Positions 38,605 to 43,473 of a DNA stretch of 64,000 nt are shown here, one piece after another. The DNA is from Candidatus Aminicenantes bacterium (lineage in GTDB: Bacteria > Acidobacteriota > Aminicenantia > Aminicenantales > UBA8522). A program made the translations under genes and the position numbers. The DNA lies in assembly GCA_963726335.1 (NCBI GenBank), contig CAVSCD010000011.1, positions 787,449 through 851,448 of the forward strand, in the 5' to 3' direction. Position 1 is the first letter of the stretch; each line of letters opens with the position of its first letter. The notes under the pieces are model-generated. The model did no database searches, was not told where the DNA came from, and saw only the letters and a list, made by a program, of their open reading frames with translations.

Positions 38605-39345
38605 GTGAGGACCATCTTCCTCGGCCTCGTCTATCTCGTCCTCCTCCTCTTCCTTTCCGTCGCTCTCCTCATTTGCTGGCCGCTCGGCGTGCGCGACCCG
38701 CTCCTGGCGATCGCCAAGTGGGCCATGGACCTGGGACTGAAGATCCTGGGGATCCGGGTCGGGGTCTCGGGACGCGAGGCGATCGATAAGGGATCGCGGT
38801 ACGTTTTCATGGCCAACCATCTCAGCTTTATCGACGGACCGATGCTCTTCCGCTTCATTCCCCAGTCCGTGCGCGTCATTCTCAAGAAGTCGATCTTCCG
38901 GATCCCCGTCCTCGGCCAGGGAATGAGATTCGTGGGATTTGTCCCGGTGGACAGGAAGGGGGTCCGGGGCGGCCGGCAGAGCATCGATGTCGCCGCGCGC
39001 CTGATGCGGGAGCGCGGCTACTCTTACCTGATCTTTCCCGAGGGGACGAGGAGCCGCGACGGGCGGCCCCAGGCTTTTCGCCGGGGCGGGTTCTTCCTGG
39101 CCATCGAGGCCGGCGCCCCGATCGTTCCGGTCAGCATCGCCGGGACCTTCGAGCTCATGCCCAAGGGATCGATGTTCGCCCGGTCAGGCCCGGTTTGCGT
39201 GCGGTTCCACCCGCCCATTTCATCCCAGGGCTTTGGGCCGGCGAATATGGGCGAGCTCATGGACACGGTGAAGGCCGCGATCGAGTCGGGGCTGGCCGAG
39301 CCGGAGCGTCCGGCGGCTAATCTTCGCCCAACACGATCTTCTTGA
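38605..39345 (+). CDS. plsC: 1-acyl-sn-glycerol-3-phosphate acyltransferase
   Basis: 246 aa; acyltransferase motifs ANHLSFIDGPML (HX4D-like) and FPEGTRS. Confidence 0.85.
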   Translation: MRTIFLGLVYLVLLLFLSVALLICWPLGVRDPLLAIAKWAMDLGLKILGIRVGVSGREAIDKGSRYVFMANHLSFIDGPMLFRFIPQSVRVILKKSIFRIPVLGQGMRFVGFVPVDRKGVRGGRQSIDVAARLMRERGYSYLIFPEGTRSRDGRPQAFRRGGFFLAIEAGAPIVPVSIAGTFELMPKGSMFARSGPVCVRFHPPISSQGFGPANMGELMDTVKAAIESGLAEPERPAANLRPTRSS

Positions 39346-41659
39346 TCTCGGCCGCGCCCGCCGCCCCGCTGTTGAAGAGATAACAGGCCGTCGAGTCGAG
39401 CAGCCGGCCGAAGAAACCCTTCTGAAGCTCCAGCCGGTCTTCGCTCGCGAACAGCAAATGGGGATTGTAATACGGCTGGGGTTTGGCGGGGCTGAGGCTC
39501 TTCCTGGCGCCCGCCGCTTCGCCCGCCTCGAGGATCCGAAGGGCCTCGTCCTTCTTCAGCCGCACCGCGGCCGGAGAGATCGCATCGTTCCTCAGGATGA
39601 ATAGCCAGGCGAGCTCGGTCCGCTTGACGTGGCCCGCCTTGCCGCCGATCCACGCCGGGTCGAGCATGGCGTGAGCGCCCTTGGAAGCGCGGTAGCAGTA
39701 GGGAGAACCCCTGTCCAGGCGGCAGTCATCGAGCCTCAGGCAGCCGGCGTCCTGGCAGTCTTCTTTGTGGATGATAATATTTTCGCACCGGCTGGCGTCG
39801 AAGAGCGGAGCCAGCTGCGGGAACGACTCGACGGTGTTGGTCGGAAGATAAAGCTTCCGCTCGACGCATTCGGCCAGTGCCCGTCCCCCGCCGAACCGCA
39901 CCAGGACGATGTCGTTGCTCTGGAGCCGGAACCGGCGGTCGCCGAGGAGCTCGAAGAACAGTTCGGTCTTGTTTGTTCCGGCGGGCCCGACGAGCACCAG
40001 GCCTTTGCCGCCCGCGTCCGCCGACATGCCCCGGATGCCGTGAACGCCGAACAGGCGCTCTCCCGCGTCGAGGACCAGGCCGAGCGCCAGGCTCCGGAGC
40101 GGGCCGTAGTTATCGGCGTTGACGATGACGCCGGTCTTCGTCTCCGAGTTGTAGAAGGCGCGGGGCTCCCGCCCGGGGATCCCGTCCACGGCGAAGATGA
40201 TGCCGTGCGGCTCCAGGTCGGCTTCGAGCTGCGCCGGATACCAGTTCTCCACCCAGAAGTCGTAGAGATGGGGGACGTTCGTCCGGAGCTGGACGATGAC
40301 GCCGGAGATGTTGGCGTTCCACTCGTAATAGTTTTCGTGGCTGAGGTGGCTTTCCATCTCGGCGACGAGCGCGTCTCTCAGCTTGACGGTGGTCGAGGAA
40401 TCCACCGGCACCTGTTTTTTGACCCGGGTGACGGCGTTCTGCAGCGCGACCCGCTTCACGCTCTTGGGTGTCTTCAGCCGGGAGACGGCCTCGATGATCC
40501 GGTCCATCCCTTTTTCCAGGTTGGCCATCGAGGTCGCGGTCGACAGCCGGATGTGGGCGTCGGCCCCGAAGGAGTCACCCGGGACGATGGCCACCCGGGC
40601 CTCCTTCAGGAGGTAGTAGGCCATGCCGTAGGAGTTCCGGATCAGTGTGCCGTTGGCTTCCTTATCGTAGTATTGCGAGACGTTGGGGAAGAGGTAGAAC
40701 GCGCCCTGGGGTTTGAAACAGGAGATGTTGGGGATGGCGCTCAGGCGCATATGGCAGTAATTGCGGCGGCGCTGGAACTCGGAGATCATCCGGGAGATCT
40801 CGTGCTGCGGGCCGCTCAGGGCTTCCAGGCTCGCCTGCTGCGAGATCGAGCAGGCGTTCGAGGTTGAGTGGCTCTGGATCTTGCTCATCCCGTTGATCAC
40901 CTCCGCGGGCCCGAGGGCGTAGCCGATCCGCCAGCCTGTCATAGAGTAGGATTTGGAGACGCCGTTAATCAGAATGGTTTTCTTTTTGATCTCCTCGCCC
41001 AGGGAGGCGAAGCTGACGTACGGGAAATCGTCGTAGATGAGCTTGCCGTAGATCTCGTCGGCGATGACGTAGATGTCCTCGCCGCGGATCACCTCGGCCA
41101 GGGCCTCGAGCTGGGACTTGTTGTAGGCCGCGCCCGTCGGGTTGGACGGATTGTTGAGAATGAGGGCCTTGGTGGCGGGGTTGATCGCGGCTTTCAAGTC
41201 GTCGGGAGAGAGGAGAAAACCGTTCTCCTCCTTGGTGGGGATGAACACGGGTTTACCGCCGGAGATGGCCACCGCCTGTGGATAGGTGACCCAATACGGG
41301 GCGGGGATGATCACCTCCTCGCCTTCGTTGACCAGCGCCTGGATGAGGTTGAAGAGCGAGTTCTTGGCGCCGCTCGAGACGATGACCTGGTTGGGCTCGT
41401 AGCTGAGCCCGTAGTCCTCCTTCATCCGGGCGATGATGGCCTTCTTCAGGGCGGGGATCCCCTCGTTCTCCGTGTACTTCGTGAAGTTCTGCTGGATGGC
41501 GCGGATACCCGCCGCCTTGATGTTTTCCGGTGTGGGGAAGTCGGGCTCGCCCACGCTCAAGTCGACGATGTCGATCCCATCGGCCTTCATGGCCCTGGCC
41601 TTGGCCGAGATCTTGAGCGTCGGCGAGGCGCCGATCTGGTTGACTTTTTCTGAGATCAT
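39317..41659 (-). CDS. Fusion protein: class I/II aspartate-family aminotransferase (N-terminal about 395 aa) + HprK/PEP-carboxykinase-like P-loop domain (C-terminal about 380 aa)
   Basis: N-terminus is a complete fold-type I aminotransferase (SKSYSMTGWRIGY PLP-lysine region); C-terminus has the HprK/PEPCK-like pattern GVHGIRGMSADAGGKGLVLVGPAGTNKTELFFELLGDRRFRLQSNDIV; single uninterrupted 780-aa ORF. Confidence 0.6.
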   Translation of the reverse strand: MISEKVNQIGASPTLKISAKARAMKADGIDIVDLSVGEPDFPTPENIKAAGIRAIQQNFTKYTENEGIPALKKAIIARMKEDYGLSYEPNQVIVSSGAKNSLFNLIQALVNEGEEVIIPAPYWVTYPQAVAISGGKPVFIPTKEENGFLLSPDDLKAAINPATKALILNNPSNPTGAAYNKSQLEALAEVIRGEDIYVIADEIYGKLIYDDFPYVSFASLGEEIKKKTILINGVSKSYSMTGWRIGYALGPAEVINGMSKIQSHSTSNACSISQQASLEALSGPQHEISRMISEFQRRRNYCHMRLSAIPNISCFKPQGAFYLFPNVSQYYDKEANGTLIRNSYGMAYYLLKEARVAIVPGDSFGADAHIRLSTATSMANLEKGMDRIIEAVSRLKTPKSVKRVALQNAVTRVKKQVPVDSSTTVKLRDALVAEMESHLSHENYYEWNANISGVIVQLRTNVPHLYDFWVENWYPAQLEADLEPHGIIFAVDGIPGREPRAFYNSETKTGVIVNADNYGPLRSLALGLVLDAGERLFGVHGIRGMSADAGGKGLVLVGPAGTNKTELFFELLGDRRFRLQSNDIVLVRFGGGRALAECVERKLYLPTNTVESFPQLAPLFDASRCENIIIHKEDCQDAGCLRLDDCRLDRGSPYCYRASKGAHAMLDPAWIGGKAGHVKRTELAWLFILRNDAISPAAVRLKKDEALRILEAGEAAGARKSLSPAKPQPYYNPHLLFASEDRLELQKGFFGRLLDSTACYLFNSGAAGAAEIKKIVLGED

Positions 41660-41683
41660 GCTGGGCCTGTCTCCCGGGCGAGA

Positions 41684-43096
41684 TCAGCCTTCCTTTTTCT
41701 CTTCAGGCGAGAACTTGGCCTGGAGGTACTTCTTGATGTCGATCCCGGTCAGGGATTGGACGACGTCCGGCATCTGGGCCAGCACCTCGGCGACCTGGGC
41801 GGTGATCTTCGTCGTGCCCAGGCTCTTGTCGCCGCCGCCGATGACGACGATCTTATCGACCTTGGAGAGCGGCTCGGAAACGGCCTTGGCCAGTTCGGGG
41901 AGTGTTTTGAGGTACATCTCGAGGACTGCGGCCTGGTTGTATTTTTCCCAAGCCTGGGCTTTCTTCAGCATCGCTTCGGCCTCGGCGAACCCCTTTTTCT
42001 TCATGATCTCGGCTTCGACTTCGCCCTCGACCCTGAGAGCCTCGGCCTTGCCCTTGGCCTCGGCCTGGATGCGGAACTCCTCGGCCTCGGCTTCGGACTT
42101 GATCTGGTACTTGCGGGCGTCGGCCGGCTTGATGACGGACGACTCGAGCTCCTTCTCGCGCCGGGCGATCTCGAGCTCCTCGAGCTTGATGGCCTCGCTC
42201 TTCTCGATGGCCTTCATCGTCGCTTCTTCTTTCTTGATCTGCTGGCTCAGGCGGTAGCGCTCGAGCTCGTAGGAGAAATCGGCCTGGGCCTTTCTCTGAT
42301 TGACCATGACCTGGGATTCGGCCTTCTTGGCCTCGTTTTCCCACTGCGCCTTGGCGATCAAGGCGTCAGCGGCCAGACGGGCGACCTCTCCCTCCTTCCG
42401 CGCTTGGGAGGACTTGACGATGGATTCCTTCTCGGTCTCGGCCTCGGCGATCGAGGCGTCCCGCTTGGCGGCGGCGATCTGGGGCTTGCTCAACGAATCG
42501 AGGAATCCCTGGGCGTCGCTGATATCCTTGAGGGCGAACGAGAGCATGACCAGTCCCATGCGCGACAGGTCCGGCTTGACGGCCTCCGACACCCTGGCCG
42601 AGAATTCCTGGCGGCCGCGGTAGATCTGTTCGACCGTCATCGTTCCCATGACCTCTCTCGTGTGGCCTTCGAGGACGTTCAGGGCGACGTCCCGGATGCC
42701 GTCCTTGCCCACGCCGAGGAATTGCTCGGCGGCCAGGCGGATAGCGAGATCCGAGGAATCGACCTTGACCTGAGCGGTGGCCTCGGCCATGATCGGCACG
42801 CCGCTGTGGGTGAGGACTTCAGGGGTCTTGATGTTCAGGCTGATGACGTCCATCGGCAGGCGGTAGACTGTCTCGGCGAACGGCAGGACGAACGTGCCCC
42901 CGCCCAGCCGGTACCGGTACCCGACCTTGACCTTGGTGCCGTCGGGGCTGACGACCGTCCTCTTCCTGCCGCCGGCGATGATCAGGACCTCGTTGGGGCC
43001 GACCTTTCGGTACTGCTTGGCGAAGACGAATAGAATGAGAGCGATGACGGCGACGATGACGCCGACGAGGATCAGCGTGGAAGTAGGTATCATCAT
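41684..43096 (-). CDS. Flotillin-like SPFH/band-7 protein
   Basis: 470 aa; N-terminal TM anchor, SPFH domain, long E/A/K-rich coiled-coil flotillin region. Confidence 0.85.
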   Translation of the reverse strand: MMIPTSTLILVGVIVAVIALILFVFAKQYRKVGPNEVLIIAGGRKRTVVSPDGTKVKVGYRYRLGGGTFVLPFAETVYRLPMDVISLNIKTPEVLTHSGVPIMAEATAQVKVDSSDLAIRLAAEQFLGVGKDGIRDVALNVLEGHTREVMGTMTVEQIYRGRQEFSARVSEAVKPDLSRMGLVMLSFALKDISDAQGFLDSLSKPQIAAAKRDASIAEAETEKESIVKSSQARKEGEVARLAADALIAKAQWENEAKKAESQVMVNQRKAQADFSYELERYRLSQQIKKEEATMKAIEKSEAIKLEELEIARREKELESSVIKPADARKYQIKSEAEAEEFRIQAEAKGKAEALRVEGEVEAEIMKKKGFAEAEAMLKKAQAWEKYNQAAVLEMYLKTLPELAKAVSEPLSKVDKIVVIGGGDKSLGTTKITAQVAEVLAQMPDVVQSLTGIDIKKYLQAKFSPEEKKEG

Positions 43097-43473
43097 ATCC
43101 TCCTGTGCATCAGCCCCGGACAGAGCGGGGCGAGGCCCGCGGATGGGCGGCCGCGTTCAACCTGAATTTAGGAGAATATTAGCTTTAAGGACTGGTCAAG
43201 TCAAGGCTTCCGCCGTCGTCGGAAGCCGCCTTTCATGAACGGGCCGATTTCTCTCCGGTGAGAACCAGGGAGGCCTTTTGAGGGGGTCATGGTCAGCGCG
43301 GCTTCTCACCCCCGGCGATGAGAAGGTTTAGCAAAACTCACCCCGGCGTTCATCGAGCCCGACGATTGACCGGCGGCCGGGAATGAATGACAATACGGCT
43401 GAAATGGAGAGCCCGCGTTTCAGTGAACGCTGTAAAATGGCCGGCCCCGAGGGATCGACACAAGGAGTCAGGG

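Follow-up and report, generated by a model that had tools for sequence, protein, structure and literature searches.

The window, the whole 64-kb stretch of DNA that was analyzed, carries a minus-strand open reading frame (ORF) that fuses an aminotransferase to a PEPCK-like domain. The genes and features of the locus are as follows:

43176..43204, minus strand, sigma-70-like promoter match upstream of the flotillin gene (a consensus match only)
41684..43096, minus strand, flotillin gene (SPFH/Band_7 and Flot by Pfam) directly upstream of the fusion, 24-nt gap, probable operon partner
41670..41675, minus strand, GGGAGA RBS-like site in the flotillin-fusion spacer, 10 nt before the fusion ATG
39317..41659, minus strand, whole fusion ORF of 780 aa (ATG 41659-41657, TAG 39319-39317)
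40475..41659, minus strand, complete subgroup Ib aspartate aminotransferase (AspAT) domain, residues 1–395 (PF00155 and AspAT structure alignments)
40928..40957, minus strand, SKSYSMTGWR motif with the PLP lysine K236 (40952-40954)
40451..40474, minus strand, linker KTPKSVKR, residues 396–403, a short flexible tether by low pLDDT and low conservation
39320..40450, minus strand, compact PEPCK-fold domain (PCKL, type B), residues 404–780, ~377 residues, without a Pfam or NCBIfam model
38605..39345, plus strand, convergent acyltransferase (PlsC-like) gene, with a 29-nt overlap between its 3′ end and that of the fusion

The ORF runs from ATG to TAG over exactly the span for which a sequence-only reading of this DNA had claimed a single 780-aa product without giving a strand. 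That reading had also allowed for a missed stop at the junction (~40470). Such an artifact, in which a sequencing or assembly error deleted a stop or shifted the frame, has a negligible probability and is refuted by comparative sequence data: a single reading frame spans the aminotransferase and PEPCK-like parts in 69 of 72 independent untruncated species-genome loci, two of the remaining loci are likewise single long ORFs, and more than 120 protein clusters of 775–792 aa share the architecture. The domain boundary is conserved as well, with L406, N408, and T411 invariant in 40 sequences, and public data contain an identical protein (P0264). Nothing was found in favor of an artifact, several short homologs on long contigs having only looked split at first. 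Those homologs had also raised the possibility that the gene is split in nature or has a recoded stop codon, which was rejected because the cases are assembly faults: one locus (L001) is frameshift-ridden throughout, a second (L002) has one frameshift, and a third, from Zixibacteria (L003), has an N-filled scaffold gap.

Relatives are encoded by 474 GTDB species genomes, a figure that covers fused-clade-like sequences because the genome scan used the fused-clade alignment only. The architecture had not been recognized from sequence and is indeed unannotated: half of a protein kept in hundreds of species-level genomes of widespread, uncultured Aminicenantes and their relatives carries no annotation, and databases label the whole simply as an aminotransferase. 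A literature search turned up neither this fusion nor a bacterial PEPCK-like pseudoenzyme.

By sequence and structure alignment, the N-terminal half is an intact subgroup Ib AspAT with a predicted specificity. Residues 30–388 match Pfam Aminotran_1_2 (PF00155) with an E value of 3.8e-79 and 266.9 bits (cutoff 19.7), spanning profile positions 2–361 of 361. Residues 1–395 align end to end with AspAT structures 6F77, 1J32, 5WMH, and 1BKG (E 3e-104 to 6e-90, with 6F77 at 3e-104). The best NCBIfam model is the aspartate transaminase PRK06107 at 450.2 bits; as this is below the equivalog cutoff of 617, the protein is classed as AspAT-like, without a curated equivalog assignment. The PLP-lysine context SKSYSMTGW, recognized earlier from sequence, was confirmed at residues 235–243, and all of 40 sequences share S235, K236, Y238, M240, G242, W243, and R244. 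Further aminotransferase motifs include NPSNPTG (170–176), DEIY (201–204), and R371. D201, Y204, K236, and R371 do not vary across 40 sequences and match the same motifs of 6F77 and 6F35, and we take the roles of the PLP-lysine, ligand, and carboxylate-binding Arg motifs to be those established for AspATs. Pfam, structure alignments, and catalytic motifs agree on a full fold-type I aminotransferase at residues 1–395, as had been read. These residues are collinear with the solved subgroup Ib AspATs (T. thermophilus 1BKG, S. meliloti AatA 6F77, and Arabidopsis AspAT/prephenate aminotransferase 5WMH), but the window protein has a 385-residue C-terminal extension that the solved enzymes lack. The aminotransferase half would be active, converting aspartate and 2-oxoglutarate to oxaloacetate and glutamate; candidate substrates are Asp, Glu, and prephenate.

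The linker falls in the least conserved stretch of the protein (residues 396–430, 59% mean identity), and pLDDT is below 50 at residues 400–408. Beyond it, sequence searches were uninformative, and structure prediction was therefore needed. Residues 396–780 have no Pfam match at E ≤ 1, Hpr_kinase_C included, and no NCBIfam PEPCK match; the HprK model TIGR00679 reaches only 13.3 bits against a cutoff of 240 (E 0.035), confined to the P-loop region. When the C-terminal half was searched as a single sequence, Pfam, NCBIfam, and PDB sequences yielded only a faint HprK P-loop match, and the fused-clade profile searched against PDB sequences returned only the aminotransferase tail and weak HprK matches. 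Foldseek with the C-terminal half gave ATP-PEPCK for all of the best 35 matches (E ~3e-17), and hhalign of the family against PckA gave 99.2% (E 2e-18).

The P-loop domain of the PEPCK/HprK superfamily that had been placed after the aminotransferase is thus predicted to have the two-subdomain PEPCK fold and is not limited to the HprK C-terminal kinase fold. A regulatory Ser-kinase, the other option raised from sequence, gained no specific support, the HprK models being far below threshold. Relative to HprK/P (PF07475, TIGR00679), HprK-related kinases A and B, and ScmC, only about one-third of the domain is matched, its P-loop lacks the GxSGxGKS glycine, and the protein has neither the HprK N-terminal domain nor an HPr/PTS context. 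In the N-terminal subdomain, the conserved LRTN motif (R459, T460, N461) is a candidate for the counterpart of R65, which binds oxaloacetate/PEP in PEPCK; hhalign to this region gave a probability of 0.6% and no significant alignment.

Residue equivalences to PEPCK (E. coli numbering) were taken from the profile alignment. We take K213, H232, and D269 to be the Mn2+ ligands of PEPCK, and Y207, K288, and R333 to be its substrate/phosphoryl-transfer residues. The corresponding features of the window domain, with counts for the fused clade, are as follows:

40091..40096, minus strand, R522-S523 at the PEPCK K212-K213 positions (R in 66/69, S in 52/69)
40031..40033, minus strand, R543 at the position of the Mn2+ ligand H232 (R in 66/69; H in 16/18 stand-alone relatives)
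39962..39988, minus strand, deviant Walker-A loop GPAGTNKTE, residues 558–566, with K564 and T565 kept and N563 as the G253 equivalent
39911..39916, minus strand, N582-D583 at the D268-D269 positions (N in 53/69, D in 63/69)
39695..39757, minus strand, Cys-rich insert CX4CX5CX8C (C635, C640, C646, C655), a candidate metal site (each Cys in 61–67 of 69)
39671..39673, minus strand, H663 at the substrate-binding R333 position, which varies (H, R, Y, F, V, Q)

The domain is collinear with ATP-PEPCK (PckA, PF01293; E. coli 1AQ2, T. cruzi 1II2, and T. thermophilus 2PC9) through the TDxYG…, P-loop, xDD, ExxxYxxT, ENV, and NTG motifs, and it keeps equivalents of the P-loop Lys/Thr and of D269. It differs in having ~377 residues where PEPCK has 540, in scoring under every PEPCK model threshold, and in adding the four-Cys insert and the aminotransferase fusion. 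The Mn2+ ligand set becomes S523, R543, and D583 (K213→S, H232→R), with the Asp alone retained. The P-loop segment quoted in the sequence-only reading is present as GPAGTNKTE (G253→N); orthologs have GPKGTKKTE or GPPGT[R/K/N]KTE, and none of 67 Aminicenantes-type orthologs has G at the G253 position, where K, R, N, or Q stands instead (K/R/N in 54/69 of the fused clade). The changes also include D268→N, R333→H, Y207→N (N517), and K288→P (P606, with P in 51/69 of the fused clade). The domain has no counterpart to E. coli PEPCK beyond residue ~463, and R449 aligns to Ala, so it lacks the adenine-binding region of PEPCK (R449 plus the final 77 residues). As judged from the alignment, the catalytic residues of PEPCK are swapped for other residues that are themselves strongly conserved, and the domain probably no longer carries out the PEPCK reaction.

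An uncharacterized family of stand-alone compact PEPCK-like proteins, defined here as type A (320–566 aa; e.g., P0123, P0127, P0128, and P0140), has the same compact domain at 25%–40% identity (E down to 1e-65). Type A proteins and the window domain share the truncation relative to PEPCK and the K213→S change, but type A keeps Y207, K212, H232, a canonical GTGK[ST] loop, DD, and R333, whereas the window domain does not, and most type A members lack the Cys insert. Since the stand-alone relatives keep the catalytic residues, their replacement is specific to the fused form. None of 57 type A proteins is clearly fused to an aminotransferase: 55 have no such part, and two gave an aminotransferase match. 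Type A proteins reach only 28–51 bits against the PEPCK model cutoff of 369, and their gene contexts, unrelated to that of the fusion, have no common theme except one NDK neighbor. A larger uncharacterized family with an intact kinase-type site is thereby exposed.

The PEPCK-like domain of the fusion is nearly as constrained as the aminotransferase (69% versus 75% mean identity), with 107 of 350 columns at least 95% conserved. Its cleft positions are among the best conserved, including T/S565, K564 (58/69 in the fused clade, with R in eight more), D583 (63/69), and E600, R601, T607, E626, and N627 (each 67–69 of 69). This conservation speaks for a true bifunctional enzyme, in which a divergent, metal-poor site would act on the oxaloacetate coming from the aminotransferase, or on a related 2-oxo or amino acid, by phosphorylation or decarboxylation, with channeling from aspartate to a phosphorylated product within a single chain. 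The window's sub-lineage also retains the domain without an adjacent PEPCK, and the relative HprK functions without the PEPCK Mn2+ site. We nevertheless consider such an enzyme unlikely, given the replacement of two of the three Mn2+ ligand positions, a G253 equivalent that is never G, the D268→N and K288→P changes, the loss of the adenine-binding part, and the adjacent canonical PEPCK gene of most relatives. Orthologs also vary freely at the R333 position, which is unexpected for a catalytic substrate-binding residue. The earlier proposal that the fusion channels Asp through oxaloacetate to a phosphorylated product finds partial support: its metabolic logic is strengthened, through a partner PEPCK, by the gene neighborhood, but conversion of oxaloacetate by the domain itself, as proposed there, is not supported.

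In 47 of 76 relatives' loci, the gene immediately downstream on the same strand encodes a canonical 610-aa PEPCK, so that a separate enzyme provides the PEPCK step in them; all testable catalytic residues are conserved in the downstream PEPCKs (48/48). A PEPCK gene is also near the distant fusion L091, and an archaeal protein (P0141, 899 aa) has a type B domain, its P-loop lost, fused to the same long PEPCK type. The neighbor is missing from the other 29 loci. The acyltransferase gene marks the place that PEPCK and SIS genes occupy in relatives, and tblastn found no PEPCK gene in the 64-kb window. Among the best 120 of 1412 matches, long-type PEPCK was not found on long contigs bearing window-clade fusions, including the window's 1.24-Mb contig, which is no more than suggestive. 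Because the domain is equally conserved where the PEPCK neighbor is missing, pairing with PEPCK cannot be its sole role.

Persistence of the conserved domain in these lineages, the window's included, is consistent with a purely allosteric sensor whose ligand would be a PEP/oxaloacetate-node metabolite or an energy-charge signal and which would control the aminotransferase, with neither a physical nor a functional link to PEPCK. A pocket remodeled with extra Arg and Lys and a tether short enough to hold the domains close fit this as well. It remains an improbable explanation, as it does not account for the association of type B domains with long-form PEPCK (by adjacency, in L091, and in the archaeal fusion), and the full-length model (pTM 0.54) has no confident interface between the domains.

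Conservation in hundreds of Aminicenantes-type genomes, often beside a real PEPCK, suggests that the domain is probably a binding or partner module and not a second enzyme. Our tentative reading, put a little short of an even chance, is that the aminotransferase carries, on a tether, a ligand-binding or partner module that is not a PEPCK and acts at the oxaloacetate-PEP node. A linker of ~8 residues joins the aminotransferase to an ATP-PEPCK paralog trimmed to ~377 residues with a rebuilt active site. In the type B domain, the Mn2+ site and the C-terminal adenine-binding part are gone, one acidic residue of the pair that follows the P-loop is neutralized, and the second glycine of the Walker-A loop is replaced by an extra, usually basic, side chain. 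The cleft may persist as a cationic pocket that needs no metal and takes an anionic ligand, candidates being phosphate/carboxylate compounds such as PEP, oxaloacetate, PPi, or the phosphate tail of a nucleotide. The domain may also, or instead, offer a pairing surface for a catalytically competent PEPCK paralog. Ancestrally, it would have worked with the downstream canonical long-form PEPCK in a coupled or co-regulated path from aspartate through oxaloacetate to PEP; in the window's sub-lineage, where the neighbor gene is absent, it would be a sensing or regulatory appendage of the aminotransferase. The conserved cleft (K564, T565, D583, E600-R601-K602, and E626-N627) would be equally expected of an active enzyme with altered chemistry.

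In 67 of 68 loci, a same-strand flotillin gene directly precedes the fusion, and one also lies upstream of the distant fusions L091 and L092 (17-nt gaps), whose PEPCK-like domains are 44%–46% identical. This linkage is left unexplained by the binding or partner module. Together with the RBS-like site in the 24-nt gap of the window, it would fit a localization module in which the domain, perhaps through the four-Cys insert, attaches the aminotransferase to flotillin-organized membrane microdomains, the conserved operon reflecting the interaction. We regard this as very unlikely: adjacency alone shows no interaction, the Zixibacteria locus has no flotillin, no part of the domain is similar to known flotillin or NfeD partners, and neither the PEPCK linkage nor the conserved cleft is explained.

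Two further roles, unlikely in our estimate, are that the type B domain, far from being a dead remnant, is (a) a new enzyme that needs no metal and uses the aminotransferase product or (b) an adaptor in a three-part assembly of flotillin, aminotransferase-PCKL, and long-form PEPCK, in which unstable oxaloacetate formed from aspartate is channeled on to PEP at the membrane. In the adaptor version, the task of the PEPCK Mn2+ in holding a dicarboxylate or phosphate intermediate would fall to Arg543 and the basic P-loop. Either role, if true, would be a previously undescribed organization of the oxaloacetate-PEP node across Aminicenantes and related phyla, with the archaeal PCKL-PEPCK fusion as a parallel.

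A rebuilt yet conserved PEPCK paralog that is genetically tied to a genuine PEPCK offers a hypothesis for how these anaerobes might link aspartate catabolism to gluconeogenesis through PEP. Few repurposed PEPCK folds are known, and the fusion domain would add a prokaryotic example. Compared to it, the Euglena gracilis complex I accessory subunit NDUEG2 is eukaryotic, belongs to a membrane respiratory complex, and is not fused to an aminotransferase, with no sign of common descent beyond the fold. In metabolic reconstructions, the domain should be neither counted as a PEPCK nor ignored.

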